From Candidatus Methanomethylicaceae archaeon (GTDB lineage Archaea > Thermoproteota > Methanomethylicia > Methanomethylicales > Methanomethylicaceae): a stretch of DNA of 64,000 nt. A model generated the notes under the pieces. The model was not told the DNA's origin, did not search any database, and worked only from the letters and a program-made list of their open reading frames with translations. Of this stretch, positions 38,915 to 64,000 are shown in pieces. The stretch covers positions 10,645 to 74,644 of the forward strand of contig JACTUC010000008.1 in assembly GCA_015660995.1 (NCBI GenBank). The letters are read 5' to 3'. The position numbers and the translations under genes were made by a program. Positions within the stretch are counted from its first letter, which is position 1. The number at the start of each line of letters is the position of its first letter.

Positions 38915-38920
38915 TGAAGC

Positions 38921-40192: not shown

Positions 40193-40250
40193 GCCCGGAC
40201 AATTAAATTATTGATTGGAAAATGCGAGCAGATGCAGCCCTTAAGATAAT

Positions 40251-40283
40251 GTGTGCGGGATTGAAATTTAACCCCAACCCCAA
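40251..40283. repeat. Island palindrome copy (GTGTGCGGGATTGAAATTTAACCCCAACCCCAA), at the core/island boundary
   Basis: First copy of the GT-rich / AT core / CA-rich motif. Lies just after eno. Confidence 0.6.
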
Positions 40284-40420
40284 TCTGGATTAAGGAAGGG
40301 TCCCTCTGGCAGGCCACGGGACTGGCATTCATTACTCCTACCAAGTAGGAGGTTTATGTCTCCTAAAACCTATGACAGCACTCAACAAAACTATTAAATA
40401 ACAAAATTCCATGTAAGAAA

Positions 40421-40984
40421 GTGGATCTGCCAATGAGTTCTTTTACGGTGCTCAAATCCATCCTCCGCTACTACCTTAGGTACATTGTTGGTTCTCCGCT
40501 ACCCTTCCTCTCCCACCAGGCCTTCTCTGAGTACATAATCTCCGAGAGCAGTAGGTATGAGAAATATTACATTCCTCCTATAGACCTCAAAGATAAAACC
40601 GTTCTTGATGTTGGCGCGGAAGAGGGGTGCACTGCTCTCTTCTTCTTCAAGCATGGTGCCAAAAAGGTTATCTGCATCGAGCCACAGCCCGAGGCCTTCG
40701 CCAACCTGAAAAAAAATGCCGAGGCTCTCAAGTGGAATGCCATTCTCATCAACGATGTCTTTAAATTAGATCATCTAAGCTTGGACGTCAATTTCATCAA
40801 GATGAACATCGAGGGCTATGAGGCACTGATCCTAGATCAACCAATTCCAAAGATTCCTATGGTGATGGAGGTCCACGGCCTGTGGCTCGTCGACGAGTTT
40901 GTAAAAAGAGGGTGGCATAAAGCCTCTGGGAACGATGCCACGCATTGCAGGGCAATGCTCAACAATTGGGGGGTTAAAATTTAA
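40421..40984 (+). CDS. FkbM-family SAM-dependent methyltransferase
   Basis: VLDVGAEEGCTALFF (motif I) and FIKMNIEGYE (FkbM motif). Confidence 0.6.
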   Translation: MDLPMSSFTVLKSILRYYLRYIVGSPLPFLSHQAFSEYIISESSRYEKYYIPPIDLKDKTVLDVGAEEGCTALFFFKHGAKKVICIEPQPEAFANLKKNAEALKWNAILINDVFKLDHLSLDVNFIKMNIEGYEALILDQPIPKIPMVMEVHGLWLVDEFVKRGWHKASGNDATHCRAMLNNWGVKI

Positions 40985-41042
40985 TTCCCACACATATTGG
41001 AAAAACAAAATAATTATACAAAAAAAGAAGTGAGAAGTATTT

Positions 41043-41615
41043 CTATCCTGTTATGTTGCCTGCCAGGACTACAATGTATTCGGTTGAACCAGTGCTGAAG
41101 TCCAGTTTGAGATTAGCTGTTAGGACACCACCGAAATTACCTTGGGCATCGGCGCGAATCAGTAATACACCGCCTGGGTTGGTCTGCCCCTGGCCCACAA
41201 GTGCTTCCGCATAGCGTCCCGTCTGGGCAGCGCCTGACGTAATGGTGTAGGTTGTACCGTTGATTACAATTTCCCCGCTAGTCAATGTCAGGATATACCC
41301 TGCCTTCAGTGCATTTGTCACGGTGAAAGTCATCGTTCCAGAGGCGTCTCCATGCTGGCTAGGATCACCGACTACCTTGAAAGTGCCCATTGTGCTTGTG
41401 ATAGTTATTGTCTGACCCACCGAAAGGTTGGCCGGGATCCCACAGTCACACTTGCGATCGATGGCGGGCATCACGTTATTTGGGGTTGCATTTGTGGTCG
41501 CTGCTATGTTCAGGTTTGCAAATACACCGGGTGTTACTGCCAGAAAGGTGAATATTCCCAGCACTGCCAGGAGTGCCACTATCACTGTGGCCTTTTTGGA
41601 TATTTTCATTGCCAT
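41043..41615 (-). CDS. Secreted hypothetical protein (signal peptide, G/T-rich beta-rich domain)
   Basis: Sec-type signal peptide MAMKISKKATVIVALLAVLGIFTFLAVTPGVFA. No known domain. Confidence 0.45.
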   Translation of the reverse strand: MAMKISKKATVIVALLAVLGIFTFLAVTPGVFANLNIAATTNATPNNVMPAIDRKCDCGIPANLSVGQTITITSTMGTFKVVGDPSQHGDASGTMTFTVTNALKAGYILTLTSGEIVINGTTYTITSGAAQTGRYAEALVGQGQTNPGGVLLIRADAQGNFGGVLTANLKLDFSTGSTEYIVVLAGNITG

Positions 41616-41722
41616 TTGAAATCACCAGGGAAAAACTCCTAAACCAAACGGATTTAACCACTCCCTTTGTCGATATCTCGACTGGAAATTCGAAATTTCG
41701 AAAAAGTCTGTACCATTAAAAT

Positions 41723-41748
41723 CTAATCCCCACACATTTTAAAAAATG
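41723..41748. repeat. Island motif half-copy (CTAATCCCCACACATTTTAAAAAATG)
   Basis: Upstream of the start of minus-strand gene 41043..41615. Confidence 0.5.
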
Positions 41749-41855
41749 TCAAAAGAGTGACAAAAGTGGTAGCCTGTGGTAAGATGACCTATTCTTGTCT
41801 TGTTCATGAAATTCAAACCTCCATCCCTCGTAGGCACCTCTTTGTTGTTCTTTGC

Positions 41856-42974
41856 CTATACTTTCCTCGGTAATCCGAAAGTCAGGATAAACCCGATCAT
41901 TGCTACAGCGGCCAGAAAAATAAGAGTGTAATAGGGAAGAGATATGATCTGACCTACTGTAACAAGAACTAGTATCGCGAAAATGTGTCCTATGAGCATT
42001 ATGAAGCCTGTGATTTGCCCCTGGGACTTATGTTGGATGAATTTCTCGATCCATTCAAAAATTATCGGCCAAGCACTCAGAAGGAAAAAACCGTCCAGAA
42101 TGAGCCATCCCGAAACCCATACAACGTTTTGCCAGATCGCTATTGCTAAAAAAGTGAGTGCTGTGTACAACGATGCTGCCATCAGAATATAGGTTCGTTT
42201 GTTGTGTTTTGATACAATTTGAGGAATAATTGCTGAACCAATAATTCCAGAAATGATCACGATCCCAAGGAGAGAACCAGCAACATCTCCAAGCCCAAAT
42301 TGTGAAAAGATGGGCTGCAACCAACTTGATAAAGAATCAAATATCCCTAGTCCAACAGCAAGTATTCCTCCAAGGATCCATAACTGCTTTTCCTTGAGAA
42401 TCTCTTTTAAACCTCTTGAATAAAATGCAACTTGAATTTGGTCGGAAGAGGGAATCTCCTCCGCTCTAAAAAGAACTGCTAGGCTCCATATGGTCGCCAC
42501 TGCAGTTATTATTGCAATTACAGTTTCAAGGTAAATTATTCCTCCAAGCTGATAGAGTGGATAACCTATGGCCATAGCCACTACGATTCCGGTGTAAATA
42601 CCAATGCTCGATATCGATACTGCGGTTACCCTCTGTTTATCTATAAAATACTTCCGCGCAAAAAGCGGAATTGATGAGAGAATAAACGGCTGTGCAATGG
42701 CACCAATAATCTGGGTGCTGAAGATGAACCCAAAAGATAAGGGATCCAGAAGCCTTCCTATCCCGGCAATTGCATTAAGTACTATTCCAATCAATAATGC
42801 TTTTTTGAAGAATGAATCCAATGCTCTGCCCGATGGTATGGCTAATAGTATATATACAATAGGATACATGACGGCTAAGTAACCTACATACAACACATTT
42901 ACATTAAAAACTGTAGCCATGTAGGTTTCTACAGGAGAAAACGTTACCCAAATTGCCTGGGACGATAAAACCAA
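41856..42974 (-). CDS. MFS-like transporter
   Basis: 10-12 TM helices with an MFS-like loop PSGRALDSF. Downstream of the decarboxylase on the same strand. Confidence 0.55.
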   Translation of the reverse strand: MVLSSQAIWVTFSPVETYMATVFNVNVLYVGYLAVMYPIVYILLAIPSGRALDSFFKKALLIGIVLNAIAGIGRLLDPLSFGFIFSTQIIGAIAQPFILSSIPLFARKYFIDKQRVTAVSISSIGIYTGIVVAMAIGYPLYQLGGIIYLETVIAIITAVATIWSLAVLFRAEEIPSSDQIQVAFYSRGLKEILKEKQLWILGGILAVGLGIFDSLSSWLQPIFSQFGLGDVAGSLLGIVIISGIIGSAIIPQIVSKHNKRTYILMAASLYTALTFLAIAIWQNVVWVSGWLILDGFFLLSAWPIIFEWIEKFIQHKSQGQITGFIMLIGHIFAILVLVTVGQIISLPYYTLIFLAAVAMIGFILTFGLPRKV

Positions 42975-43039
42975 TAATGAGTATCCTATAAGTACAAATG
43001 AAAAGGTAGACTTACTATCAGTCCTCGTGGTTAAGTCTC

Positions 43040-44512
43040 CTAGTTGTCTTTCTCGTCCTTCCTAGTTGGAGTAAAGACCTCATTCACTATCGTCTTGAAT
43101 AATTTTTCAACTAACTCGCTAGGCATGGTTCTAATTAATTGATTGATCAAAGTCATCTGCGAACCACTATCTTCATCAGGGGTACTCAGTGAATGAGAAA
43201 TAGCGGCTACAAGCGAATTTAGTTCCTCTGGATTAAAACTGATGCGGGAAACATCGTTGATGCTTTTATCCCGATTCTGAATATTTTTGTTCCTGACCGA
43301 TTCTGTGCATGTCTTCAGAGACTCAATGAATGGCTCAATGGAATACTCATGAGCAGCGGTGATAGTCATATGTAAAGATGCAACATTATTCAGCTCTTCG
43401 GAGCCGGGCTGGACCTGAAGATACCACCCTTTGGATTTCATCAGGTCTGCGATCTGGAAAATATTAACATCGCCTCTTCTAAAAGCCACGATGCTCGCCT
43501 CCGGTTTGCCTAGAATTTCGTAACCTAAGCCTTCAAGACCCCGTATCAGCTTCTCTCTTGCAATTAGCACTTTTTTTGATAGTTCTATGTAACCTTTCTT
43601 TCCCAAATAGTTCAAGGTTGCCCATGATGCAGCAAGGGGTCCTTCCGATCTCGTTGATTGAAGTGTGGTATTTGCCATTGGGTATCCAGGCCAGCTAGCA
43701 TTCGTGAATAATTGATGTATTCTTAGTTCTTTGGACCTGTAGAGTATCACTGAAGCACCTTTTGGAGCGTAGCCGTACTTGTGAAGATCAGCAGATATCG
43801 AAGTAACTCCCCTGACTGAAAAATCAAATTCAGGCAACTTCTCTCCTAGCAATCTGAAAAACGGAAGGATAAAGCCGCCTATGCAGGCATCCACATGTAA
43901 CCTTACACCCTTCTCTATGGCAATCTCTCCAAGACTTTCTATTGGATCAATAACTCCAATAGGATATGATGGTGCAGAACCAACAATAAGCGCTGTATTT
44001 TCATTTATTCTTCTTTCAACATCCTCAGCTTTTACTTTAAATGTCTTCTTGTCTACGGGGACGACCGTCAAGGTCATATCAAAAAAATCAGCCGCTTTGA
44101 TAAATGAAGGATGGCCAGTGCTAGGTATAATTACTTCTGGTCTTCCTGAACCTCCACATTTGTTTGCCCTATGGTAATCTCTTGCAGACTTTACAGCAAG
44201 CATATTGCTTTCTGTGCCACCACTCGTAAAGTTTCCAACAGTTGTATTATTTCCATTGAGGAGAGATGCAGTCATGGCCACAATATCATTTTCAAGCATA
44301 AGCACACTAGGAAAGACTGTAAAATCAAGGGCGTTCTTGTTCATGAATTCCCAATAAAATTCTCGGATTCTATCAAGTTCTTTATTTCCAGATTCATATA
44401 CATATGAAAATAATTTTCCTTTGTTATCCGGCATATCATGCTTTGAGAATTCACGAAGACCCTTACGAATCTCATAAAAAGACAGACCATCATCTGGCAA
44501 ATCTTTTAACAT
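43040..44512 (-). CDS. PLP-dependent group II decarboxylase / sphingosine-1-phosphate-lyase-like enzyme
   Basis: SGGTESN and SADLHKYGYAPKGASV (Lys of HK binds PLP) match the SPL/GadA fold-type I family. 490 aa with the N-terminal extension typical of SPL-like members. Confidence 0.75.
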   Translation of the reverse strand: MLKDLPDDGLSFYEIRKGLREFSKHDMPDNKGKLFSYVYESGNKELDRIREFYWEFMNKNALDFTVFPSVLMLENDIVAMTASLLNGNNTTVGNFTSGGTESNMLAVKSARDYHRANKCGGSGRPEVIIPSTGHPSFIKAADFFDMTLTVVPVDKKTFKVKAEDVERRINENTALIVGSAPSYPIGVIDPIESLGEIAIEKGVRLHVDACIGGFILPFFRLLGEKLPEFDFSVRGVTSISADLHKYGYAPKGASVILYRSKELRIHQLFTNASWPGYPMANTTLQSTRSEGPLAASWATLNYLGKKGYIELSKKVLIAREKLIRGLEGLGYEILGKPEASIVAFRRGDVNIFQIADLMKSKGWYLQVQPGSEELNNVASLHMTITAAHEYSIEPFIESLKTCTESVRNKNIQNRDKSINDVSRISFNPEELNSLVAAISHSLSTPDEDSGSQMTLINQLIRTMPSELVEKLFKTIVNEVFTPTRKDEKDN

Positions 44513-44640
44513 AAGATCATGATAATAATATTCTCAGCCTTACTTAAGCGTTGATGATATGCTAGGCAGATGGTGAATAGACTAAGGCATTATTTTCTAT
44601 GCGCGGGGGTTAATTCAATTCTTTCTCCTGCTACTGTGTT

Positions 44641-45414
44641 TCATTCCGGAAGCTCCCGTCCGAAGCGCGACTGGACGTCGTATAATGCCCACATCAAGGT
44701 GAAGATGAAGTTGTATACCCAAAGCTTCGGATCCGATCTTGTATATCTGAATTCTCTGACTGAGGCGCGTATGCTCTGCTTGGAGAGAACGCTCTTCATA
44801 GTCTTATAATGTCGACAGTAGGAAGCGAAGCTCTTGACGACCCGGTAGTTCTGGGATAGGATCCACTCCCTGATGTAGGCGTCTTCCAGCGTGTGAAGGT
44901 GGCTCGGGATGTGCAAGTCTTTTACTGCCTCGCGACGCACCAGGAGGTCGTGGCAGCCGCCCCTTAGGTCGAAGACGCGTGACTCCATCCAGAGAAGCGC
45001 GCTGACCATCCGCCTGTTCGTAACAGCTCCAGGGATGTCGACCCCCCAGACCGCGCCTACGTCTGGCTCTCTAAGCCTGCTTGCCTTCTGGAACCAGTCC
45101 CTGCAGAGGACTACGTCGCTGTCGACGAAGACGAACCATTCCGTCTCGACCTCTTGCATCCCCCTATCCCGCGCCTCTCCTCGGGTACCAGTCTCCTCGA
45201 TCACCTTCACATTGCCATACTTGCTTCTGAACTCATCGAGAATCTGGAGTGTGAGGTCCTCTGAATGGCCGTCAACGGCGATCAAGCGATTCACCGGGAC
45301 ATTCTCATATATAGAGCTGAGGCAGTCTCTGAAAATGCCGTCGCTATCCCTGGTCAGGATAACTACGTCGACCTTCTCCATGGTGGTTCTTGATCTCGGT
45401 TTCCTAATTAGCAT
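44641..45414 (-). CDS. Family 2 glycosyltransferase
   Basis: VVILTRDSDG..., DGHSEDLT and FVFVDSDVV (DxD) motifs. Confidence 0.7.
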   Translation of the reverse strand: MLIRKPRSRTTMEKVDVVILTRDSDGIFRDCLSSIYENVPVNRLIAVDGHSEDLTLQILDEFRSKYGNVKVIEETGTRGEARDRGMQEVETEWFVFVDSDVVLCRDWFQKASRLREPDVGAVWGVDIPGAVTNRRMVSALLWMESRVFDLRGGCHDLLVRREAVKDLHIPSHLHTLEDAYIREWILSQNYRVVKSFASYCRHYKTMKSVLSKQSIRASVREFRYTRSDPKLWVYNFIFTLMWALYDVQSRFGRELPE

Positions 45415-45494
45415 TTCTCCTTGAGCATCTTAGTTCCCAGGAGCCAGCTCGCGATGGTCCTGGACCTGACCTAGACAGAAGCTGGACAAAGGGA

Positions 45495-45553
45495 GTGTCT
45501 GTGGGGGTTAAACTTTTGTTTTTTTTACTTGCACACGGGGCCCCACATTAAAT
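45495..45553. repeat. Two facing half-copies (GTGTCTGTGGGGGTTAAAC ... GCACACGGGGCCCCACATTAAAT)
   Basis: Divergent promoter region between the GT2 gene and the first DUF72 gene. Confidence 0.5.
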
Positions 45554-45588
45554 ATGTTTGAAGGATATATCCTCCATAAAAAAGGAAG

Positions 45589-46533
45589 TTGTATATTTTG
45601 GTGGAGTTGTACGTCGGCGCAGGGGGATGGGCTTACTTCATAGTTCCAGATGAGAGCCCTTTAAAGGCCTACTCGAAGACTTTCAACTTCGTAGAAGTGA
45701 ACTCGACTTTTTACGAAATCCCTCAACCCGGTGCTGCAGACGCTTGGAGGAGGGCAGTGCCGCAGTCATTCAGGTTCGCAGTGAGGGCCAATAAGGCGAT
45801 AACCCACAACGATCCATTCGCGCCTTCGCCGGAATCTGAAGACGCACTGCAGGCTACTTTGGAGGTATGCCAAGCGCTAAAGGCAGACGTGCTCCACTTC
45901 CAGACCCCCCAATCATTCAGGATTGGCGATATCGAAGCAAAGCGGATAGGCGATTTCTTCAGTACACTGAATGCGGGCAGCATGCTCTTGGCACTGGAGG
46001 TGAGGGGCGCTTCAGGCGGGGATCTTCCCCATAGCCTAGTAAAGGCAATGCAGGACAATTATATTATCCACTGCGTCGACCTACTGAAAGGCGAAGCGCC
46101 GGCATATGCCGCCGACACACTCTACACCAGAACCTTCGGCAAGGGTGATCACAACATATACCAACCCGATGATGGTGAGCTCAAGGCGGTACATATGACT
46201 GCTTCCATGTACACGAAAGCATACGTGGCCTCCCACAGCGCTAAAATGTACTCAGACGCTGCAAGGCTGATCACATTTGGCAAGACCGGCAAATTCCCCA
46301 TGGTAACCAAGTGCACAGGGCTGAATTCGCTGACTTCTGTCTTGGAAGAGGACGCCAAGTTCCCAGCGACTAAGGACGAGCTGATAAAGAGGCAGGGATG
46401 GAAGCTCTATGACGCATCGGAGGAAGTGAGGGTCAGGGCCGAGGAGCCGCTGAGTAAGCTGCCAGACAGGACTTATGGCAATGTAAATGACCTCTTGCAA
46501 GAACTACATTATCAGGGAGGCGGGGCAGTCTGA
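45589..46533 (+). CDS. DUF72 (UPF0759) family protein, divergent paralogue
   Basis: VGAGGWAY...NSTFYEIP aligns to the DUF72 N-terminal GTSGWSY...STFY motif of the next gene. Confidence 0.6.
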   Translation: MYILVELYVGAGGWAYFIVPDESPLKAYSKTFNFVEVNSTFYEIPQPGAADAWRRAVPQSFRFAVRANKAITHNDPFAPSPESEDALQATLEVCQALKADVLHFQTPQSFRIGDIEAKRIGDFFSTLNAGSMLLALEVRGASGGDLPHSLVKAMQDNYIIHCVDLLKGEAPAYAADTLYTRTFGKGDHNIYQPDDGELKAVHMTASMYTKAYVASHSAKMYSDAARLITFGKTGKFPMVTKCTGLNSLTSVLEEDAKFPATKDELIKRQGWKLYDASEEVRVRAEEPLSKLPDRTYGNVNDLLQELHYQGGGAV

Positions 46534-48083: not shown

Positions 48084-48105
48084 ACATTCTGCTTACATGC
48101 GTTCG

Positions 48106-48143
48106 AATTAAATATTTCCCCCACAAACACAAAAATTTTTTAA
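48106..48143. repeat. Island motif copy (TTTCCCCCACAAACACAAAAATTTTTTAAAAATACCCC)
   Basis: Immediately upstream of the DUF116 gene start. Confidence 0.5.
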
Positions 48144-54829: not shown

Positions 54830-55097
54830 ATCTTCATCTCCTCTGGCCGGTCTGGTTCAAGTATTCGTTTCACCCTAATCTTAGTCTTCCGTATGCTATC
54901 CTTCGTGCTCATTAAATTTTAGCCCCAAACCCACTAACTACTATTCTACTGGTAAGATAGGGAAATGAAACTCCATCAGCTTCAAGAGAGCCACCATCAA
55001 TAGAACGCTCTTAGTTGAACTAAGAGAACTCTGCTTGTCATCAAAAAGAGAGATGGGAAATGCAGAGTTATTAACAACTTGAAGTCTATTTATTGCC

Positions 55098-55505: not shown

Positions 55506-55532
55506 TCTTTAACCCCCCAAACCCAAACGGCT

Positions 55533-56273
55533 TCATTTAGGAAGGCGGAAGATGTAGACCCCCCAGCCCAAGACACCCCTCTCCCACCGAAGATAGTATT
55601 CCTTCTCCCTCCCCTTCCTCTCCATCAGCTCTGCAAGGTCGGGATCGTCAGGTTTTGCTTTGGAGTATTCGTTCACGGCATTCCACTGGAGCGTCTCGTA
55701 ATTGTCCCAGTCGTCGAGGCTGCTCTCCATGGCATAGACACAGTTGAGACTATGCTCCTCCCCGATAGCGATATTCCCGCCAAATCCACTGGCGTAGTCT
55801 TCCTTTTTTTGTGAGGTCAGTCTGAGATACTCCGGATCGGGCTCTTTCGACCAAAATGGTTCGCCTGTCACTATGAGTCCCCAAGGGACGACCATGCTCA
55901 GCAGTGCCTTCAGCGTTCTTGCATAGCCTCCGTAGATAAAACTGGCGCCAAGGCATATTGCGATGTCGAACGGAGCTTCAGGCTTATATTGAGAGCCATC
56001 CATGAGGAGGAACTTTAGGCCCGACCCAGGTACCCTCTTTCTCTGCTTTTCAAGACATTCTTCGATGGAGTAGGGGGATATGTCCACGCCCATGCCAGCA
56101 ATATTATAAAGCTCTTCTAGCCTGATGAGAGTCTCACCCTTGCCGCATCCCATATCCAGTACCCTCCCCCCTGGGCTTAGCAGTCTGCACATCCGATCAA
56201 ACTTTTCTCGGAGAAGTGGATTGCATATCAAATGGTGTCGATGCGTGATGTCATAATATTTCCAGGTGTCCAT
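55533..56273 (-). CDS. Class I SAM-dependent methyltransferase
   Basis: VLDMGCGKGE (motif I), GVDISPY (motif II), LLMDGSQY. Confidence 0.75.
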   Translation of the reverse strand: MDTWKYYDITHRHHLICNPLLREKFDRMCRLLSPGGRVLDMGCGKGETLIRLEELYNIAGMGVDISPYSIEECLEKQRKRVPGSGLKFLLMDGSQYKPEAPFDIAICLGASFIYGGYARTLKALLSMVVPWGLIVTGEPFWSKEPDPEYLRLTSQKKEDYASGFGGNIAIGEEHSLNCVYAMESSLDDWDNYETLQWNAVNEYSKAKPDDPDLAELMERKGREKEYYLRWERGVLGWGVYIFRLPK

Positions 56274-56354
56274 GATGAAAACTCGGATACAATCTGTATT
56301 AAAGTCTACTTTCTTATCATTGAGTTGGATATGGAAAATAGAAAGTAAGTTATT

Positions 56355-56388
56355 GTGTGTGTGGGGTAAATTTTAATCCCCCACACAC
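56355..56388. repeat. Full island palindrome (GTGTGTGTGGGGTAAATTTTAATCCCCCACACAC)
   Basis: Near-perfect inverted repeat around an A/T core, upstream of the MTase gene 55533..56273. Confidence 0.7.
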
Positions 56389-56402: not shown

Positions 56403-56855
56403 CTATCGTAATCCTTTCTCCATAGTATTTACCAGAGAGTTTACTACCCGTTTTTGAACTACTCCCTTGGCTGCCTGTTTCGCAACTGATAACCTATCGT
56501 GGAGAATCGTGTGTTGCTTAATTTTGCCATCATCAATTTCATAGATACAGATCCCAAGCGTTTCATATTTCATGCCTTGATAGGAAACTGCCTCTAGCAT
56601 GTACTCGTAAACAGCCTTATTGCCATTTACCACAAGTCCTATTCCAGCATCCTTAAACTTTACCTGACGATTCATCTTGAAAGCCCAAGTCAAATAGCGC
56701 TTCACTTCCGCCTTGCCTTTGAACATTCCCTCGGGAACTTGCCAGACAGTGTCTTCTGTAAAAAAGGAAAGTGTGCCATCCACATCCAGCTTCATGTATG
56801 CATCATGAAAATTGCGTATAAGCGTCTCAACATTCTTCTCAGACGTATCACTCAC
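56403..56855 (-). CDS. SnoaL-like / NTF2-fold protein
   Basis: FHDAYMKLDVDGTLSFFTEDTVWQ is a typical SnoaL/ketosteroid-isomerase-like N-terminus. Confidence 0.55.
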   Translation of the reverse strand: MSDTSEKNVETLIRNFHDAYMKLDVDGTLSFFTEDTVWQVPEGMFKGKAEVKRYLTWAFKMNRQVKFKDAGIGLVVNGNKAVYEYMLEAVSYQGMKYETLGICIYEIDDGKIKQHTILHDRLSVAKQAAKGVVQKRVVNSLVNTMEKGLR

Positions 56856-57052
56856 CTCCTACTAACGACCATCTTCCGCGGCTTCCTCCCTCCCATAATC
56901 CGAAATGCAATCTATCACGAGGGGCGCCCTTCATTTTTTCACTCACTACATTCTATTATGGGAAGTGTGATATACGCTACACGTAACACCAGCCAAGAGA
57001 GAAATGGTTACTCACTAGTAACCATAGTTAGTAGTTAGTCGTCAGTCAGTAG

Positions 57053-57087
57053 TGTGTGTGGTAAAAATTTAACCCCCCACACACACT
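57053..57087. repeat. Full island palindrome (GTGTGTGTGGTAAAAATTTAACCCCCCACACACAC)
   Basis: Divergent intergenic region between 56403..56855(-) and 57115(+). A further half-copy lies at 57137-57172. Confidence 0.7.
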
Positions 57088-57114: not shown

Positions 57115-57630
57115 GTGAGATTGAATTTCATTTTTTTTATAATTTCGCATGTGTGTTTGGGTTTGGGATTAGATTATATATGCTATGGAAACAAAGATGA
57201 AATCGGTGATTTCGTGCCTATACCTAAAGAAGTTCAGGATGTGTACAATGATCCTGCAGCCATAAAGGTGCTCGCCACAAGATCCGGAGACGACCTTCAT
57301 GTGATACCCTTGGGCTCACTCAGGGTAATGGATGCCAACACCATAGTCTGCGCCTCGATACACATGCGGGAGGCCCACGAGAACCTTCGTGTTGCAGCCG
57401 AGACTGGAGCGAAAATTTCCACCTTGGCAGTAAAGACTGGACCAGGAGGACCGCCGCAGGCGTATCAGGTAAGATGTCGCGTGAAGGCATTCGTGACCTC
57501 TGGTCCCCTCTTCGAAGTGATGAATGAGAACCTTAAAAAAAGAGGGATGGAAATGCGCGGCGTGTGGATCCTTGAGCCTTTGGAAGTCTTGGACCAGTTC
57601 GGACCGAACGCTGGCAAGAAGATTGCATAG
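57115..57630 (+). CDS. Hypothetical protein (true start probably downstream, about 57200-57230)
   Basis: The first 25 codons overlap a copy of the island palindrome (CATGTGTGTTTGGGTTTGGGATTAGATT) and look non-coding. The remaining roughly 130 aa have a beta-rich, split-barrel-like character. Confidence 0.35.
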   Translation: MRLNFIFFIISHVCLGLGLDYICYGNKDEIGDFVPIPKEVQDVYNDPAAIKVLATRSGDDLHVIPLGSLRVMDANTIVCASIHMREAHENLRVAAETGAKISTLAVKTGPGGPPQAYQVRCRVKAFVTSGPLFEVMNENLKKRGMEMRGVWILEPLEVLDQFGPNAGKKIA

Positions 57631-57665: not shown

Positions 57666-57947
57666 CTTTTTTTTAATTCAACCGCATACATCTTTGGATA
57701 ATGATATAAGAATGGCTGATTGGAAACTACTATCCGAAAGGAAGAACATCATTCATGAGGAGGTATAGATACGAAATGGACAACTAGAATAGTAATCATA
57801 GTCGTACTAACAATAATAGTAATACTAATAGCAATGGGAATACATCAGGGATGGTTGTAAAGTTATAAATACAAATGCTAATGGAGATAGCATCTTTCTT
57901 CCTGCATTCTCTACAATGTAACATTCTATGCTTTCTAGGTGTGTGTG

Positions 57948-57980
57948 GGATTAAATTTTAATACCACAAACTCTAGGTGA
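57948..57980. repeat. Island palindrome copy (GTGTGTGTGGGATTAAATTTTAATACCACAAAC)
   Basis: Upstream of the DUF1294 gene. Confidence 0.6.
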
Positions 57981-58010: not shown

Positions 58011-58295
58011 TTGGCTGGCATGACGAACATGTTGCAAGTTCCCCCTCTGCTGATTCTCCTCGCGATCGTTAATACTGTATCACTTGTGTTTTTCGGGGTG
58101 GACAAATGGAGGAGCATGACGGGAGGCTGGAGGGTTCCGGAATCGAGGCTTCTGCTGGTTGCATTCTTTGGACCGTTCGGGGCCTACGTTGGCATGTTAA
58201 TTTTTAGGCACAAGACCCGCAAGGTCAAGTTCCTTCTGGTCCCGATCTTCCTGGTTCTCCAGTTATTATTGATATTATACCTTCACCTCATCTGA
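58011..58295 (+). CDS. DUF1294-family small membrane protein
   Basis: FGVDKWRS..GGWRVPESRLLLVAFFGPFGAYVGMLIFRHKTRK is a DUF1294 signature. Confidence 0.55.
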   Translation: MAGMTNMLQVPPLLILLAIVNTVSLVFFGVDKWRSMTGGWRVPESRLLLVAFFGPFGAYVGMLIFRHKTRKVKFLLVPIFLVLQLLLILYLHLI

Positions 58296-58461
58296 GGCGG
58301 TTCATGCATCACAGGCACACCTATGCGCGTAAATCACTTATGTTTCGCGAAGCAATAGAATCGCCAGTCTTTAGTCTCTCTCTCCCGAAACTGAACTTCT
58401 CTAACTAATGACCATCGCTTTCACATCAATTTGATGATCCCGGAGCGAAAATTAGGCGAAA

Positions 58462-58701
58462 GTGATAGTATTAGGATCGGGTGCGAGAATGACCTTAGCT
58501 GAAGACCCTGTCCTTTCCAACGACGTTTTTTTTAACGGCGGCTACAAGTGCCTGAAATGCGGCAAGTGGTGCCGGTCCTGGCATGGATTCAGGATCCACT
58601 ACAGCAAGAGGCATATCGCGCACCCCATTAAACCCAAGCCAGAACCTAAGCCCCTGACCTTGTGGGATCTGAGGTACGGTGGGAAGAAGTGGAATCAGTG
58701 A
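58462..58701 (+). CDS. Small C2H2-like zinc-finger protein
   Basis: YKCLKCGKWCRSWHGFRIHYSKRH fits C-x2-C-x12-H-x4-H. Basic PKPEPKP tail. Confidence 0.45.
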   Translation: MIVLGSGARMTLAEDPVLSNDVFFNGGYKCLKCGKWCRSWHGFRIHYSKRHIAHPIKPKPEPKPLTLWDLRYGGKKWNQ

Positions 58702-58709
58702 AATGCTGC

Positions 58710-58808
58710 ATGTGTGGCGGACGAGGCAGGATCTGGGTTGCAGGAGTCAGCCCTTGGCCTTGTGAGAATTGCAGAGGAAGGGGAATGATTTACAATTGTC
58801 CAAATTAA
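58710..58808 (+). CDS. Candidate 32-aa DnaJ-type zinc-finger mini-protein (two CxxCxGxG repeats)
   Basis: Hand translation gives MCGGRGRIWVAGVSPWPCENCRGRGMIYNCPN. CCMCGGRG (including the two upstream in-frame Cys codons) and CENCRGRG both fit CxxCxGxG. A possible GTG start at 58698 overlaps the stop of the preceding gene. Confidence 0.3.
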   Translation: MCGGRGRIWVAGVSPWPCENCRGRGMIYNCPN

Positions 58809-58974
58809 GACCTTAAAGCTGAAGGCAATGCCTGACTATATGATAAAGAGAGAACATACACGGACTTGTCTTAACGGAATACAGGAAAAAACCTGATCAA
58901 GCCACCAGCGTCGTTTCTTCTTGAGTCCAGAAATCCTTCGAATTGACTAAATCAACGTTGAGTTTCATTACAAT

Positions 58975-59502
58975 TTACTGGTGGCTTTGCCTCTCTGTGA
59001 CTTCTGTGTGCTCGATTACGATCATCGCTCCGATAACAAATCGGTGATCCACTTCTCCTGTTATCGAAATTCCAAACTGATCTCTTACCGAGACCCACTT
59101 CTTGTGTATGGAAGCGACCTGAACCCCATTGACCTCCATCTGATAGTCGTGCTCTGTGAAATTACCGTAGATGCGCATATACTCAACTCCGTCTCTTTCT
59201 ACCCAGTACTCTTCACCAATCAACTTGACTATCTTCTTCTTTATGGTTCCGAGTTCTGCTCTGGCATCATCATAGAAAGTGAACTGATTTCGAAACGACA
59301 ATACCTTCCCTTCGAGGTGCATCCGCTCTGAACCAGAGGCATCGATCACGACAAACTTGGCGGGGAGCTGAAATAGATTGCCATCAGCCTCTCCCAATTT
59401 CGTCCCCGTCCTATCCTCCATGTCATAATGCTCACGCACAGACAGGATCTTCTTTGTTAACACCAGATCATTGGTCTCAAAGAGAGAATTTGCGCTGCTC
59501 AT
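58975..59502 (-). CDS. LURP-one-related / tubby-C-terminal-like (DUF567) protein
   Basis: Size and alternating beta pattern (KFVVIDASGSERMHLEGKVLSFRNQFTFYDD...) fit the LOR family. Confidence 0.45.
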   Translation of the reverse strand: MSSANSLFETNDLVLTKKILSVREHYDMEDRTGTKLGEADGNLFQLPAKFVVIDASGSERMHLEGKVLSFRNQFTFYDDARAELGTIKKKIVKLIGEEYWVERDGVEYMRIYGNFTEHDYQMEVNGVQVASIHKKWVSVRDQFGISITGEVDHRFVIGAMIVIEHTEVTERQSHQ

Positions 59503-59675
59503 TCGCTCACCAAGTATACGATGTAGTGCGTTAAAACTAAAGCTTTTCTTGTACGCATGAGTGTTCCCTCAAATCTTGGGTTAACAGCAATGAGCTAACC
59601 AATATAAGCCTAAGAGAATTTGGATACTGTCAGAAGCCGGACAAGCTAACAACCCCAAAGCAACGATGGTCTGGT

Positions 59676-60467
59676 ATGATTATGAGATTCTATGAGGAAT
59701 TTGCAGAAAAATACGATAGACTGGTTTCGTGGGAGAACCGTTTCAAAAGAGAATCTGGATTCTATCAGAAGTTGTTTTCCGAAAACAAGGTGAGAACTGT
59801 TCTCGATTGTGCCTGCGGAACAGGGCAACATGTGATAATGTTCAACCAGATGGGATACAAAGCCAAAGGATCGGATTTGTCTCCAGCGATGCTGAGGAAA
59901 GCTAAAATTAACTCAAAGGCACATGGCGTCAATCCTGAATTCATAATATCCGATTTCAGGGATTTGACTCGCAACTTTGATGAGAAATTCGACGCGATTA
60001 TTTGTGTTGGAAATTCTCTCCCCCACCTATTATCTGATAAGGATTTGACCAAAGCATTGAGAGAGATGTACAGGCTCCTGAATAATAATGGTATACTAGT
60101 TCTGCAACAAAGGAATTACGATAGATTGGTAAAAACACAAATGCGATTTTTTCCGGTCTCGATGAGAGAAGATGAGGTCTTTTTCTATGTTCTAGATTAC
60201 TTTCCAAAAAAGATTGTTTTCAACGTCGTAGACCTAGAGACCAAAGCCAAGGCATTCAAAGTATATTCTACAGAGTACAATCCGCTAAGAAAAGACAATT
60301 TGATTAAACTCCTCAGGAAGGTTGGCTTTAGGGGGATGAATCTCTATGAAGATTTTCAATTCAAAAAATATGATACAGATGAGAGTGATGACTTGATTGT
60401 TGTCTGTAAGAAGGGTACTGTCAAGTCTTCGGTCGATGATAATGCCCCTAACGACATTTTGGCTTAA
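59676..60467 (+). CDS. Class I SAM-dependent methyltransferase
   Basis: VLDCACGTGQH (motif I), GSDLSPAM, AIICVGNSLPHL. Confidence 0.75.
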   Translation: MIMRFYEEFAEKYDRLVSWENRFKRESGFYQKLFSENKVRTVLDCACGTGQHVIMFNQMGYKAKGSDLSPAMLRKAKINSKAHGVNPEFIISDFRDLTRNFDEKFDAIICVGNSLPHLLSDKDLTKALREMYRLLNNNGILVLQQRNYDRLVKTQMRFFPVSMREDEVFFYVLDYFPKKIVFNVVDLETKAKAFKVYSTEYNPLRKDNLIKLLRKVGFRGMNLYEDFQFKKYDTDESDDLIVVCKKGTVKSSVDDNAPNDILA

Positions 60468-60500
60468 TGCCATAAAGTTGCGGAGTTGTTCCAGAAGATC

Positions 60501-60905
60501 TCAATAGGTCATGTTGAAATCTTGCGTAATTGTTTTCCCATTCTCATTCACTATTATTTTCATTTCGATGGTGTCCCCAGTCTGGAACGGAGTGGCTGTC
60601 ATAGCTGTTTGGCCAGTAGTAAATTTAAAATTACCAAAAAAATCTGTTGCAGCATACCAGTTATATCCTCCAGTAAGGAAATTTCCGTTTATAAATATCG
60701 TATAATTCATTGGCAAGTCTGCATCCCTTGAGTAAAGATGACCTGTTACGTTGAAACCAATAGATGGATAGGAATCCACAAATCCTTTTTGCGGTGTCAC
60801 CTGGATACTTTCCGGCGCAAGGTAGGGGAGAAAATAGGCAACAGATACGATTACAACTACTGCTAATATTACCACTGCTAATGCGAATTTTGAGTTTCTT
60901 TTCAT
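60501..60905 (-). CDS. Small N-terminally anchored extracellular protein
   Basis: Signal anchor FALAVVILAVVVIVSVAYFL and several NxT sequons. Same architecture as the 55098 protein. Confidence 0.4.
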   Translation of the reverse strand: MKRNSKFALAVVILAVVVIVSVAYFLPYLAPESIQVTPQKGFVDSYPSIGFNVTGHLYSRDADLPMNYTIFINGNFLTGGYNWYAATDFFGNFKFTTGQTAMTATPFQTGDTIEMKIIVNENGKTITQDFNMTY

Positions 60906-61031
60906 TTTTGTCTATGATATAATGTGCGTTGCTTCGGTAAATTCCTTTATGTTGTAGATGTCCGAGTGATAAATCTCGGGCAAAAATACGGCAAAGACCT
61001 TTATCGTATAGTTGACTGCCAAATTGAATTT

Positions 61032-61499
61032 CTATCGACTGAGGTCTTTCTCCATCGCTTTCGCTAATGATTTCCACCCCAACGAATCTTCCTTCGCTAA
61101 TTCATTAGCCATCAAAGCGATTCTAACCGGTGTGGGTTTTTTGCTGTTGTAGTAGACCTGGGAGCCGGTAAAATCCAGACGTGAGCCTTTTTCACCATCT
61201 GGAACTATCTGGTAAAGGAACTGGGAATGTCTTCCATCAGCACTTAATCGAGTGTTAGTCCAGAAGAGGCATTCAGGATAGAGCCTCACAAGCCTTTTCT
61301 TTACTGTCTTTCTTTCTTTCCCGAAAAGAGTGTCCGTTAGGACAAGCGTATCATCGTTGATTCGCTGGATCTGCCGCTTGCCTTTCGAGCCCATCAGCAC
61401 GATGTCATCGGTTTGGTAGTCGGTGCACCATCGGTAAGCATCTTGAGCTGGGAAGTTGAAGTGTTGGCTGAATTTGTAATGTACAGAATATGCTATCAT
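61032..61499 (-). CDS. SRPBCC (Bet v1/START-like, polyketide-cyclase-like) protein
   Basis: Length and N-terminal pattern (YSVHYKFSQHFNFPAQDAYRWCTDYQ) fit the SRPBCC superfamily. Confidence 0.4.
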   Translation of the reverse strand: MIAYSVHYKFSQHFNFPAQDAYRWCTDYQTDDIVLMGSKGKRQIQRINDDTLVLTDTLFGKERKTVKKRLVRLYPECLFWTNTRLSADGRHSQFLYQIVPDGEKGSRLDFTGSQVYYNSKKPTPVRIALMANELAKEDSLGWKSLAKAMEKDLSR

Positions 61500-61616
61500 A
61501 AAGAAGGAGTGGGTTCCTTTTTGGATATTAAGTTTCTGCCCATATGCTCTGGCAAAGATATGAAAAAGACATTTATCGCATAGTTAGCTGTTGAATTGTG
61601 AACCCTTACCCACTAT

Positions 61617-62354
61617 TTACTTCCATTTTGTAAGTATCTCCTCCCTGCGGAATGTGGCCGTACTGATATAAAATAGAACCAAAACAAGGGCTGCCATTAT
61701 GGCGGCGATGATGAGAAGAGTGTTGGTGTCGAGTGTTATGATGCCTATCTCGCCCGCGACGTAGATACCCACAAAGGGGATAAACATGAGCGCTCCGAGT
61801 TGCGATGCAGTCCGTACATCACTGACTCTCGATGACGCGATCACATTCATCTCGATGCTTAATGTTGCTGCAAGAGGGGCGAGAAGCAGAAGGATGATGC
61901 CCATGCCCCAATTTGGATAATAAAGATAGCCCAGCTTGCTGTAAGTCAAACTATCCATGAGCACCATGAAGATTGCAGCACCTGCATAGGTAGCGGCGAT
62001 GGAAGGAATGAATGCAGCTATGCTTTTTCCTAGAAGGATCTCTCCATCGGTGATGGGAGTGGCCAGAAGTGGCTCTAGGCTCTTCTCAACCTTCTCGCCG
62101 ACTATACTGTAAGAGGCTATTGGTGTAGGAATGATCGCTGGGATGATAACGTAGAAGAATGCAAATGCACTTAGTAGTACGGGGAGATACGCAGCGGGGA
62201 TTCCCCCGGACTTCTGTCCGGAGAGCTCGATTACCACTGGAAAAAGAATCGAGATGATGAGGGGAAGCATGACGACCGTATAGAGAACCGTCCTTTTCCG
62301 TATGATTACCTTGAGGTCCTTGGCTGCAATAATCCACGATTTCCGTAGTCTCAT
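61617..62354 (-). CDS. ABC-2 family transporter permease
   Basis: Six TM helices. The MRLRKSW start overlaps the ATPase stop by 4 nt. The ORF-track N-terminal extension is probably not translated. Confidence 0.75.
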   Translation of the reverse strand: MRLRKSWIIAAKDLKVIIRKRTVLYTVVMLPLIISILFPVVIELSGQKSGGIPAAYLPVLLSAFAFFYVIIPAIIPTPIASYSIVGEKVEKSLEPLLATPITDGEILLGKSIAAFIPSIAATYAGAAIFMVLMDSLTYSKLGYLYYPNWGMGIILLLLAPLAATLSIEMNVIASSRVSDVRTASQLGALMFIPFVGIYVAGEIGIITLDTNTLLIIAAIMAALVLVLFYISTATFRREEILTKWK

Positions 62355-63271
62355 TTTGTCTCCCTCACTAGTTTCAGATAGGCATCTTCTAATGTTGAAC
62401 CAAGCACAGTAACGGTCTGAATGTGGCCGCCAGCACCGACTATTGCGTTCACAATAGCCCAATTCTCCTTTTCAGGATTCTCTAGGTCAATCGTTAGTTT
62501 GTTGTTATCGCTCGTTATGTTACCAAGCGATAGTTTCTTTAATGCGTTCAGAATCGTGTCATTTACTTGGTCCAACTGAATTACGGTCTTCCTGCCCCCA
62601 ATGGACCCCTCGAGCTCTTTCGGAGTGCCTATTGCCATGAGCTTGGTATTCAATATTCCAATCTTGTCGCAGATCCTTTGAGCTTCATCGAGGTTATGGG
62701 TGTTCAGAAAAATGGTCTTCTTCTCCTTTTTCAGCTCAAGGATGAAGTCCCTGACCGTCTTTGCTGATTCTGGGTCCAGGTTCACTGTTGGCTCGTCCAA
62801 GAACAATATTTCCGGTTCATGAATAAGGGCGCGGGCTATGGCAAGTTTTTGTTTCATCCCTTTGGAGAAGGTTCCAGCCGAGACATCCCTTTTATCCCAA
62901 AGCCCAAGCATCTTGAGAAACTTCTCGATGTTTTCCTTCCTTTGCGTCTCCGTACAGTCGTACAGCTTCCCGTAAAAGTCTAGGTTGTCATAGGCGCTTA
63001 AACCATCATAGAGACCGACATTATCAGGAACCAATCCGATAATCTTCCTTATCTTCATAGAATCCGCATCGTTACCTATTTCATAATCTGCTATCTTGGC
63101 CGTGCCGCTGGTCTTTGATATGAGGCAGCAGAGCATTCTCACTGTAGTGGTCTTCCCCGCTCCGTTCGGCCCAAGGAAACCGAAAATTTCTCCCTCATCA
63201 ACATGGAAGGTCAGATCCTCAACTGCAGTAAGGTTGCCAAATTTCTTTGTGAGATTTTCGGCGTCGATCAT
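62351..63271 (-). CDS. ABC transporter ATP-binding protein
   Basis: Walker A GPNGAGKTT, signature FSKGMKQKL, Walker B ILFLDEPT, H-loop. Confidence 0.9.
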   Translation of the reverse strand: MIDAENLTKKFGNLTAVEDLTFHVDEGEIFGFLGPNGAGKTTTVRMLCCLISKTSGTAKIADYEIGNDADSMKIRKIIGLVPDNVGLYDGLSAYDNLDFYGKLYDCTETQRKENIEKFLKMLGLWDKRDVSAGTFSKGMKQKLAIARALIHEPEILFLDEPTVNLDPESAKTVRDFILELKKEKKTIFLNTHNLDEAQRICDKIGILNTKLMAIGTPKELEGSIGGRKTVIQLDQVNDTILNALKKLSLGNITSDNNKLTIDLENPEKENWAIVNAIVGAGGHIQTVTVLGSTLEDAYLKLVRETK

Positions 63272-63348
63272 TAAGTAACCTTCTCGAATTAGTTGAATCG
63301 AAGTAGTAAATATGAATTCTTATTGATGACCTAACGGTGAATCCTTTT

Positions 63349-63678
63349 TTATTTGAGATGTCTGGTGATCACGCTTGGTTTTGCTCGTCTCGTAACAGAG
63401 AGGATACCGATATTAGAAACCACAAAAGGCACAAGATAGGTAAGAAATACTTTGAGCCAGACAAACCACGTGGCTCCTCCCCCTAATACGACGTCCAACT
63501 GATTTATGATAAAGAGGACAGTTCCAACTATAAGGGCTATCGTTATCGTGTTTCTTAAGTTGCTGCTTTTGCATACGATTGCCCAAGCTTCCCTGGATGT
63601 CGACCAATACTTACGATCCTCATTTCCTGATCTACCCATGTCTTCATTTAGTGGGTCAATTGGCAATGATATCACCAA
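63349..63678 (-). CDS. Small two-TM membrane protein
   Basis: Hydrophobic helices ITIALIVGTVLFII and VFLTYLVPFVVSNIGIL. No confident family. Confidence 0.3.
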   Translation of the reverse strand: MVISLPIDPLNEDMGRSGNEDRKYWSTSREAWAIVCKSSNLRNTITIALIVGTVLFIINQLDVVLGGGATWFVWLKVFLTYLVPFVVSNIGILSVTRRAKPSVITRHLK

Positions 63679-63827
63679 GCTATTAGGTTAATTTCCTATT
63701 ATTATGCTATTACTTCGTTGGTGCAGCATAGGATTGGCTTTGTCGATGCAGCTCAGCGCGTTTCTCACCTAACATTTATCATTGCAAGACGATTAACATA
63801 AATAGTTCCAAATGTTGAGCGGAGTCG

Positions 63828-64000
63828 ATGATCTTGGAGTTTTGTCCTCGGTGTAAGAGTGTGTTGTTTCCTGATCCTACAAAACATAAATTGACATGCA
63901 GAATTTGCGGATATGAACAACCCTTTGCGGAAACGAAACTCTATACTGAAAGAATTTTGAAACCCAAGCAAACGTTAGTCATAAAATCCCATCTCCCTAC
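63828..64000 (+). CDS. tfs: Transcription factor S / RNA polymerase subunit M-like zinc-ribbon protein (5' part; runs off window end)
   Basis: Hand translation MILEFCPRCKSVLFPDPTKHKLTCRICGYEQ matches the N-terminal zinc ribbon of archaeal TFS/RpoM (MEFCPKCG..L.P......L.C..CGYE). Confidence 0.55.
   Translation, partial: MILEFCPRCKSVLFPDPTKHKLTCRICGYEQPFAETKLYTERILKPKQTLVIKSHLP

Follow-up and report, generated by a model that had tools for sequence, protein, structure and literature searches.

Introduction

Flexible genomic islands of the additive type are known from Alteromonas and other aquatic prokaryotes (PMC4898812, PMC4033161), integron cassette arrays without an integrase (CALINs) have been reported from genomes including those of Archaea, in a survey that does not mention Methanomethylicia (PMC9668308), and Acinetobacter carries dif modules, which are Xer-dependent and flanked by pdif sites (PMC6449649, PMC13141974); a XerA/dif system has also been described in archaea (PMC2958812). 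The DNA analysed here is a stretch of 64,000 nt from contig JACTUC010000008.1 of a Candidatus Methanomethylicaceae archaeon (assembly GCA_015660995.1; hereafter the window), in which conserved gene order ends directly after the enolase gene eno; the region from 40.2 kb to beyond 73 kb, past the window end, is probably a layered zone of chromosomal plasticity whose modules are rearranged at sites carrying a palindromic motif. The Methanomethylicaceae are methyl-reducing methanogen relatives of peat and sediments, uncultured or barely cultured. Next to nothing has been described of changes in their accessory genomes, and a full-text literature search combining 'Methanomethylicia' with 'genomic island' found no paper.

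The motif has a consensus half-site, KTGTGGGGRTTAAAWTTTAA, in which a G-rich arm of the form (GT)nGGGG or (GGGTTT)n precedes an AT-rich palindromic centre, TTAAAWTTTAA; at about two thirds of the sites a complementary C-rich arm is also present. As a region, the locus is like the Alteromonas-type flexible islands in its fixed position beside conserved core genes and in its AT-richer accessory sets that change in small groups among close relatives; it differs from them in belonging to an uncultured archaeon, in having no tRNA, integrase or insertion sequence (IS) at the hotspot and in the bracketing of its modules by a dedicated motif. With CALINs it shares a serial arrangement of units that mostly hold one gene and measure about 0.3-0.9 kb, with a short imperfect palindrome after each, the lack of an adjacent integrase, a content that varies among close relatives and a first site at a fixed chromosomal boundary, like attI. 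However, the site is about 30 bp long with GT/CA-repeat ends, in contrast to attC sites of 55-141 nt with R''/L''/L'/R' boxes (RYYYAAC...GTTRRRY), most motif copies form no hairpin, and genes at 40-58 kb lie on both strands. Two or more sites spaced by less than 4 kb and bracketing genes were found for the motif but not for attC, and the attC features themselves were absent.

The likeness to Acinetobacter dif modules lies in small accessory modules, two arms of two types around a spacer, a recombinase (hypothetical for the present locus) encoded elsewhere and units that are shuffled and inverted across contexts. Those modules, however, reside mainly on bacterial plasmids and have 11-6-11 XerC/XerD sites, whereas the present locus is on an archaeal chromosome and its motif has low-complexity G/T-repeat arms and a palindromic centre of 11 nt, or of 7 nt when TT/AA are assigned to the arms. 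Sites of the Xer type have two recombinase-binding arms of ~11 bp with 6-8 bp between them. By analogy, an architecture with two arms, an AT-rich core, small modules and a non-adjacent enzyme resembles that of tyrosine-recombinase core sites. The motif is also short, intergenic and multi-copy, as are repetitive extragenic palindromes and bacterial interspersed mosaic elements (REP/BIME) and mobile insertion cassettes flanked by terminal inverted repeats (TIRs), and the module ends, read outward as TTAA-CCCC(AC)n ... (GT)nGGGG-TTAA, resemble inverted terminal repeats. A target-site duplication is not demonstrable, because TTAA is its own complement. Unlike REP/BIME, the motif does not extend across the conserved 40 kb, its hairpin is not conserved, and neither a REP-associated tyrosine transposase (RAYT) nor another transposase was found within 73 kb.

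Results

Gene order and composition change after eno

The window genome (W) was compared with loci fetched from relatives and designated by L-numbers. The family-level relatives are six metagenome-assembled genomes (MAGs) of Methanomethylicus and Methanomethylicota (L007-L012), whose enolases are 69-74% identical to that of W; in five genus-level contigs the identity is 90-93%, and a sister species is represented by L098/L099 (93%). The block RFC-ECF component-hypothetical-MCM-Hel308-NAPRT-eno is kept in the six family-level relatives at 54-81% aa identity (NAPRT was not detected in L011). RFC-MCM-Hel308-NAPRT-eno also keeps its order in the five genus-level relatives, and synteny stops at eno in all ten relatives, among eleven compared, whose contig reaches past it. 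This breakpoint directly after eno is a conserved feature of the family. None of the 26 downstream genes was present in the DNA fetched past eno of the six family-level relatives (10 kb in five of the six loci), which are also unlike one another in this part, and the gene block that follows eno in L007 and L012 is not present in the window. Within the genus, eno is followed by an ABC transporter in L100, by a different open reading frame (ORF) in L159 and by an arrangement like that of L098 in L160, so that four different post-eno contents occur in one genus. A preliminary description of the window had suggested a horizontally assembled region beginning after eno, and the comparison agrees with it in that the 40-64 kb block as a whole is not conserved in any of these ten relatives. 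The W population was also found in at least eight other assemblies (JGI, ENA, Logan) at 99.9-100% nt identity, and the eno-to-island junction with its 21-kb arrangement was 99.98-100% identical in six independent assemblies (NCBI, four JGI metagenomes, Logan).

GC content in 2-kb sliding windows was 0.55-0.58 at 19-40 kb and 0.41-0.48 past 40.2 kb, the AT-richer zone being interrupted by GC-rich patches at 45-47 kb and 49-53 kb. The best single change-point (two-segment maximum-likelihood scan, log-likelihood gain 185) was at 40105, 87 nt upstream of the eno stop at 40192. From 1-40200 to 40201-64000, GC fell from 0.542 to 0.463, in coding (0.550 to 0.478) as in intergenic DNA (0.479 to 0.396), and coding density from 0.88 to 0.82. 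GC content at third codon positions (GC3) had a median of 0.685 (range 0.52-0.77) in the 34 genes up to the end of eno, hereafter the core, and of 0.528, with doubled spread, in the 26 genes after it (Mann-Whitney p=6.3e-7), 12 of which were under the core minimum and 7 within the core range. The drop in composition past 40.2 kb that had been seen in the bare sequence is confirmed by these measures. Tetranucleotide z-scores, proposed at the same time as a further check, gave a modest difference that is noisy at the 6-kb scale and adds little to GC3, with correlations to the core of r 0.29-0.44 for island segments and 0.50-0.80 for core segments. As a caveat, the stretch at 7-18 kb, in the core-like part, likewise has a GC content of just 0.49-0.52. 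A further 9.3 kb was read past the window end, to 73.3 kb in W coordinates; the AT-rich zone runs on beyond 64000, reaching 73.3 kb or further (GC 0.47) and including one more GC-rich patch at 66-70 kb. L098 and L011 show a post-eno GC drop of their own.

The low-GC stretch at 7-18 kb includes two adjacent paralogues, at 8544-10529 and 10685-12499 (661 and 604 aa; GC 0.49-0.52), that are built of diverged internal repeats of 117-243 nt.

Between-genome junctions lie in motif copies

Each between-genome difference that was mapped has a junction in a copy of the motif. The features from eno to the end of homology with the sister species are as follows (strand given where assigned; SAM, S-adenosylmethionine; PLP, pyridoxal phosphate; GT2, family 2 glycosyltransferase).

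38921-40192, plus strand: eno, enolase (Pfam Enolase_N/C), last gene of the syntenic block and anchor of the breakpoint
40247-40283: motif copy 1, GTGTGCGGGATTGAAATTTAACCCCAACCCC, limit of the conserved DNA
40433-40984, plus strand: FkbM-type SAM methyltransferase (PF05050; GC3 0.60), single-gene module with no counterpart in L098
40963-40995: motif copy 2, two-armed (half-sites 40965 plus and 40974 minus), in a convergent gap and overlapping the FkbM stop codon
41043-41615, minus strand: 190-aa N-terminally anchored or secreted protein, module inverted relative to the sister species
41716-41743, minus strand: motif half-site GTGTGGGGATTAGATTTTAA, at which the inverted segment is joined and the MFS/PLP module ends
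41856-42974, minus strand: MFS transporter (PF07690; GC3 0.38), half of a two-gene AT-rich module at 41856-44512
43040-44512, minus strand: group II PLP-dependent decarboxylase (PF00282; GC3 0.37), partner of the MFS gene
44601-44620: degenerate motif GCGCGGGGGTTAATTCAATT, where sister-species homology resumes
44641-45414, minus strand: GT2 (PF00535; GC3 0.705), 97% aa and 94% nt identity to L098
45589-47399, plus strand: two DUF72 genes (PF01904; GC3 0.62 and 0.67), the second 96% identical (aa) to L098
47475-48083, minus strand: DUF116 protein (PF01976), 96% aa identity to L098, last gene in common with the sister
48105-48132, minus strand: motif half-site TTAAATATTTCCCCCACAAACAC, where sister-species homology ends, with the motif in both genomes

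L098 and W are 95.0% identical (nt) over W 28921-40269, and the blastn alignment ends at 40269, in the first copy of the palindrome, which does lie at the boundary where it had been noticed at the outset, 55 nt past the eno stop. The sequence common to W, L098/L160 and L159 comprises the eno flank, left arm and AT centre, and right after ...TTTAA it gives way to three contents. Beyond this point L098 is without W 40270-41015 (the FkbM methyltransferase), carries W 41016-41743 (the 190-aa secreted protein) inverted at 92% nt identity, with L098 11321-12042 corresponding to W 41743-41016 and the inverted segment ending at W 41743 and near 41016, and is without W 41744-44612 (the MFS transporter and the PLP-decarboxylase). 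Homology restarts at W 44613, within the degenerate AT centre, continues at 94% nt identity through GT2, the tail of the first DUF72 gene, the second DUF72 gene and DUF116, and ends at W 48125/L098 14928, within a C-run/(CA)n arm. Four post-eno genes are thereby in common with the sister species, namely the secreted-protein gene, GT2, one DUF72 gene and DUF116. The shared island segments are 92-94% identical (nt), slightly below core identity, and have a near-core composition, and are therefore old residents. The zone is thus layered, its near-core genes being old residents and its most AT-rich genes lineage-specific.

Two strains represented by L087 and L089, 99.95% identical, part exactly at the motif centre corresponding to W 70236 (position 3036 in both). 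Past this point L087 encodes a 165-aa protein with an HNH protein, MscL, a 74-aa protein, a DUF6144 protein and AsnC; L089 encodes HTH_3, DUF2178, an ATC_hydrolase-like gene and a glycosyltransferase. The evidence on junctions spans three evolutionary depths, those of strain, species and genus, and the motif likely acts as a junction.

The first DUF72 gene (45589-46533) has a C-terminal DUF2795; at the corresponding place (13039-13338) L098 is without about 780 bp, so that the N-terminal DUF72 part (W 45476-46253) is lacking and the DUF2795 tail remains as a 99-aa ORF.

The motif is concentrated after eno

Copies of the motif occur in 9 of the 25 intergenic gaps after eno and in none of the 26 gaps before it, at similar total gap length (p=6.7e-4). 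Allowing up to 4 mismatches, W 40.2-73.3 kb had 24 matches and W 1-40.2 kb had 1, which lies within a gene; 1.2 Mb of unrelated loci had 4. In a profile search of 2.1 Mb of fetched loci the motif was almost confined to the W species, its sister, L011 and L103. At L011 12673-12698 a copy, GGGATAAAAATTTACCCCCCACAC, stands exactly at the post-eno fall in GC from 0.60 to 0.42. The motif was not found in 20 full-length loci of MMPL homologues that were scanned, and an exact-palindrome scan of viral contigs gave 5 single-copy matches, about chance level by estimate. Rfam gave no match in 40-64 kb, for attC or other families, at the gathering threshold or at E<=5.

The remaining features of the zone in the window are the following.

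49332-52595, plus strand: MMPL/RND-superfamily transporter, 1087 aa (PF03176, E=2.1e-77, two domains)
53147-54829, minus strand: 560-aa fusion of an N-terminal Pol-beta-type nucleotidyltransferase and a C-terminal RIO/Bud32-like kinase (PF18765, PF01163 and PF00069, all weak)
54903-54934: motif copy
55098-55505, plus strand: 135-aa anchored or secreted protein (no Pfam match; GC3 0.37), single-gene module between motif copies 54921 and 55511
55500-55527, minus strand: motif half-site TTAATCTTTAACCCCCCAAACCC, in a gap of convergent genes
55533-56273, minus strand: SAM methyltransferase (PF13649), single-gene module
56353-56388: near-perfect palindromic motif copy GTGTGTGTGGGGTAAATTTTAATCCCCCACACAC (DNA hairpin -12.1 kcal/mol, z=-4.9)
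56403-56855, minus strand: SnoaL-like protein (PF12680; GC3 0.44), single-gene module
57050-57086: near-perfect palindromic motif copy (fold z=-4.2)
57115-57630, plus strand: 138-171-aa hypothetical protein, single-gene module with homologues in L096 and L100
57643-57669, plus strand: motif half-site
57939-57973: two-armed motif copy (fold z=-4.1)
58020-63678: motif-free remainder of the zone in the window (Pfam; GC3 0.36-0.66)

Three series of motif copies bracket individual genes. The order is 40266, FkbM, 40979, secreted protein, 41726, MFS with PLP-decarboxylase and 44610 in the first; 54921, 135-aa protein, 55511, methyltransferase, 56371, SnoaL, 57067, 171-aa protein and 57656 in the second; and, past the window, 70231, 165-aa protein with HNH, 71100, MscL, 71696, 74-aa protein and 72172 in the third, where three consecutive sites at 70.2-72.2 kb have identical arm order. 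Successive copies around single genes at 54.9-58 kb are 300-860 bp apart; taken by series, the distances at 40.3-41.7 kb are 713 and 747 bp, those at 54.9-57.7 kb cover 590-860 bp, and those at 70.2-72.2 kb cover 476-869 bp.

The motif occurs in convergent, divergent and tandem gaps alike, and a strong hairpin is formed by 3 of the 9 copies, the other 6 folding no better than shuffled sequences. This makes it unlikely that the motif is purely a promoter, a terminator or a REP element, and the reading of the palindrome as a hairpin terminator or REP element in particular was weakened by the small number of copies that fold.

A two-gene AT-rich module recurs in other contexts

The pair formed by the MFS and PLP-decarboxylase genes was found in L102 at 89% nt identity, with a GC3 of 0.40-0.42 beside Lactamase_B, pyrF and other genes of GC3 0.57-0.72, and in L103, in yet another context, at 76% nt identity. 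In L102 a motif arm and centre follow the MFS stop and homology with W ends there, at the outer edge of the motif centre in both genomes. In two host backgrounds the pair retains a composition of its own, as a mobile module would. The PLP-decarboxylase also has a graded series of homologues. Homologues of the 171-aa protein have 84% aa identity in L096 and 42% in L100, with differing neighbours; DUF996 and the 171-aa protein recur at about 80-84% identity in other contexts in relatives.

The L103 contig (PLP-decarboxylase with MFS 78% identical) encodes at 4033-5196 an S-adenosylmethionine synthetase that matches the S-AdoMet_synt domains, a type that we take to be bacterial/eukaryotic; the host of this contig may not be an archaeon.

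The MMPL gene is native

The MMPL/RND gene had been singled out as conspicuously GC-rich, and so it is beside its neighbours (0.35-0.47); its GC of 0.570 and GC3 of 0.727 nevertheless equal the core value. Its homologues form a graded series of 81, 81, 79, 67, 66, 62 ... 44% identity, followed by a gap to 27%, and PF03176 was present in all 117 of them, the W protein having two matched MMPL stretches. A foreign origin, one of two options offered in the preliminary description, was rejected on the core-equal GC3 and the clade-wide graded homologues. The other, a region built around a native gene, fits MMPL, whose GC also tracks its host: in 20 more distant relatives it follows the flanks within about 0.00-0.05 over a range from 0.42 to 0.69. 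The two relatives at 81% (L095, and L096, apparently the same locus as L109) have entirely different neighbours, and their MMPL genes lie 0.08-0.14 GC above the flanks; the idea raised by them, that the gene is intrinsically GC-rich, was discarded in view of the tracking in the 20 further relatives. MMPL thus behaves as a long-resident native gene in fast-changing neighbourhoods.

Mobile-element hallmarks are absent from the zone

No integrase or recombinase family was found by Pfam among the ORFs of 40.2-64 kb, ten mid-sized upstream ORFs and the genes called up to 73.3 kb. No IntI integrase with attI, xerA gene or Y1 transposase was found within 73 kb, and a 383-aa ORF past the window with no Pfam match, considered as a candidate recombinase, was dismissed, its sequence looking like that of a multi-pass membrane protein. 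There was no tRNA or att-like direct repeat in 40.2-73.3 kb and no tRNA in L087, L089 or L098. Replication, conjugation, virion, plasmid and defence hallmark genes were likewise absent from 40.2-73.3 kb, PADLOC and PHROG matches being to generic domains only (methyltransferase, kinase, ABC ATPase, PLP fold), and three island proteins had no close relatives on viral contigs. The tRNA or integrase that might have marked a far boundary was thus not met with, in the window part of the zone or in the next 9.3 kb, and the classical island picture does not apply: atypical composition and absence from relatives were found, without an integrase or a tRNA/att site. The picture of a flexible island fits in that content differs at the same position in relatives and the left core flank is conserved; a right flank would lie past 73.3 kb.

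The only tRNA genes of the window, at 8.3 and 17.5 kb (8288-8389 and 17463-17557; about 95-102 nt), apparently contain introns; Rfam finds both, and ARAGORN only tRNA-Arg(TCG) at 17463.

Gene content

The switch in gene content after eno that had been described from the sequence was confirmed by Pfam. Upstream genes are RFC, MCM, Hel308, NAPRT, eno and metabolic genes. The downstream set has four SAM methyltransferases, MFS, MMPL and ABC-2 transporters, and also GT2, two DUF72 proteins, DUF116, DUF1294, SnoaL, a LURP-one-related protein, small N-terminally anchored proteins and a C2H2 mini-protein. The motif-free segment at 58020-63678 encodes DUF1294, the C2H2 zinc-finger mini-protein, the LURP-one-related protein, a SAM methyltransferase, a 134-aa anchored protein, a 155-aa protein, an ABC-2 permease and ATPase and a 109-aa membrane protein. 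Read from Pfam matches alone, the cargo would serve transport or efflux, small-molecule methylation, glycosyl transfer and amino-acid decarboxylation with a transporter, which suggests accessory niche chemistry with no single pathway.

The 560-aa nucleotidyltransferase-kinase fusion gene has a degenerate motif on one side, at 53067-53086, and the motif copy of 54903-54934 on the other, and its PADLOC matches are to generic kinases only. At the window end, 63828-64000, continuing to 64145 past it (L087 9127-9444, minus strand of L087), encodes a 105-aa protein with two CxxC...CxxC zinc ribbons that, judged by eye, resembles transcription factor S (TFS) or RNA polymerase subunit M and would be an accessory TFS paralogue; helix-turn-helix (HTH) regulators are encoded just past the end.

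Among the conserved genes, the MCM ORF of L008, L009, L010 and L012 is 1373-1773 aa long, suggesting intein-sized insertions, with none in the 693-aa MCM of W (33364-35445). The nicotinate phosphoribosyltransferase (37712-38914) has a C-terminal CxxC...CxxC zinc-ribbon extension and is 70-81% identical to its relatives over nearly the whole ORF.

Discussion

The proposal of a horizontally assembled region holds in so far as the zone is non-syntenic and contains lineage-specific AT-rich additions. It does not hold for one acquired block, and transfer from outside the clade is not shown; what the aligned genomes document is that, within the clade, modules have been gained, lost, inverted and relocated. 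A single block starting at eno is not tenable because the secreted-protein gene, GT2, one DUF72 gene and DUF116 are shared with the sister and have a near-core composition. We consider it probable that the DNA from 40.2 kb onwards is a layered plasticity zone, in which older residents with core-like codon composition (GT2, the DUF72 pair, DUF116, MMPL) would be interspersed with younger AT-rich modules of one or two genes (the FkbM methyltransferase, MFS with PLP-decarboxylase, small anchored proteins, methyltransferases, SnoaL). Such modules would be inserted, inverted, exchanged and lost through DNA breakage and joining at the motif, probably by a site-specific recombinase or transposase that recognises arm and centre and is encoded in trans, outside the 73 kb, and their AT-richness may reflect both a younger age and an origin in a separate gene pool.

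Several observations weigh against this interpretation. Junction positions are not uniform, most lying at the edge of the AT centre and the one at 48125 inside an arm, so that homologous or illegitimate recombination at a repeat fits as well as site-specific exchange. Junctions are also necessarily intergenic and the gaps are short, the chance of coincidence for the four cleanest being about 0.01, which is small but not negligible. The 73 kb examined encode no recombinase, transposase or integrase, which makes the enzyme hypothetical, and whether a module was inserted in W or lost from the sister is deduced from composition and not from an outgroup. Moreover, the motif is absent at 58-65 kb, though that stretch is AT-rich and non-syntenic, several copies are degenerate (5 mismatches), and the distribution of the motif is read from about 84 kb of one genome region.

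The same observations bear on what the motif does. The zone could be a plasticity hotspot in which the motif is regulatory or structural, acting as an operator, a bidirectional TATA-like element or a transcript-end hairpin, with junctions coinciding because it is the sole conserved sequence of the gaps, or through homologous recombination between repeats. The TATA-box-like centre, the strong hairpins of three copies, the HTH regulators just past the window, the junction that falls in an arm instead of the centre and the lack of a nearby recombinase are in keeping with such a role, which we nonetheless regard as rather unlikely: copies in convergent gaps (40979, 55511) make no sense for a promoter, six of nine copies do not fold as a conserved terminator would, the gaps of the 40-kb core are free of the motif, and arm and centre move with the MFS/PLP module to another genome context. 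Another alternative is an origin without transfer, in which vertically inherited DNA became AT-rich through low expression or relaxed selection and lost synteny by ordinary rearrangement. Homologues of MMPL, DUF996 and the 171-aa protein at 80-85% elsewhere in relatives, and the graded series for the PLP-decarboxylase and MMPL, typical of vertical descent, would suit that explanation, but the MFS/PLP pair is missing from the syntenic position in a 95%-identical sister, has a GC3 of about 0.4 beside genes of 0.57-0.72 in two different genomes, and stands in a genus with four post-eno contents and a strain-level replacement at 99.95% identity; we judge an origin of this kind improbable.

A classical integrated element beside eno, be it a provirus, an integrative plasmid or an island resembling an integrative and conjugative element (ICE), would account for the sharp compositional boundary, the accessory cargo and its absence from relatives. 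The zone is not of this kind, since 40.2-73.3 kb is free of integrase and virus genes, of tRNAs and of att repeats, and the missing direct repeats and replication, conjugation and virion genes, the three island proteins without relatives on viral contigs, the part shared with the sister and the mosaic composition make this explanation very improbable. An assembly or binning chimera joined at a repeat might be suspected where composition shifts at a repeated palindrome in a MAG contig; it is refuted by the identical junction in the six independent assemblies, and the sister species has an eno-motif-island junction as well, at a repeat of only about 33 bp.

Within the preferred interpretation of a plasticity zone rearranged at motif sites, the mechanism may take several forms. 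The modules could be transposase-mobilised cassettes, with ends resembling inverted terminal repeats that abut TTAA, and plain homologous or cruciform-provoked recombination at the repeat is possible too. By analogy with described systems, we tentatively raise the possibility that the motif is the recombination site of an undescribed archaeal gene-module system served by a trans-encoded enzyme, XerA-like or other, comparable in function to integron cassette arrays or Acinetobacter dif modules yet with a site of another kind; on the same tentative footing, such a system would build single-gene arrays and move AT-rich accessory genes among Methanomethylicaceae.

As a genomic island the locus is ordinary, and if the motif is not a recombination site, it is a well-documented yet ordinary flexible genomic island. 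If recombination does take place at it, the few cassette systems would gain a new class of site and enzyme, and the motif would give a practical marker for flexible regions in MAGs. The motif-bounded module architecture in an archaeal chromosome is the part worth pursuing, and the post-eno hotspot with its motif-bounded single-gene modules offers a testable handle on archaeal gene-module mobility outside integrons.

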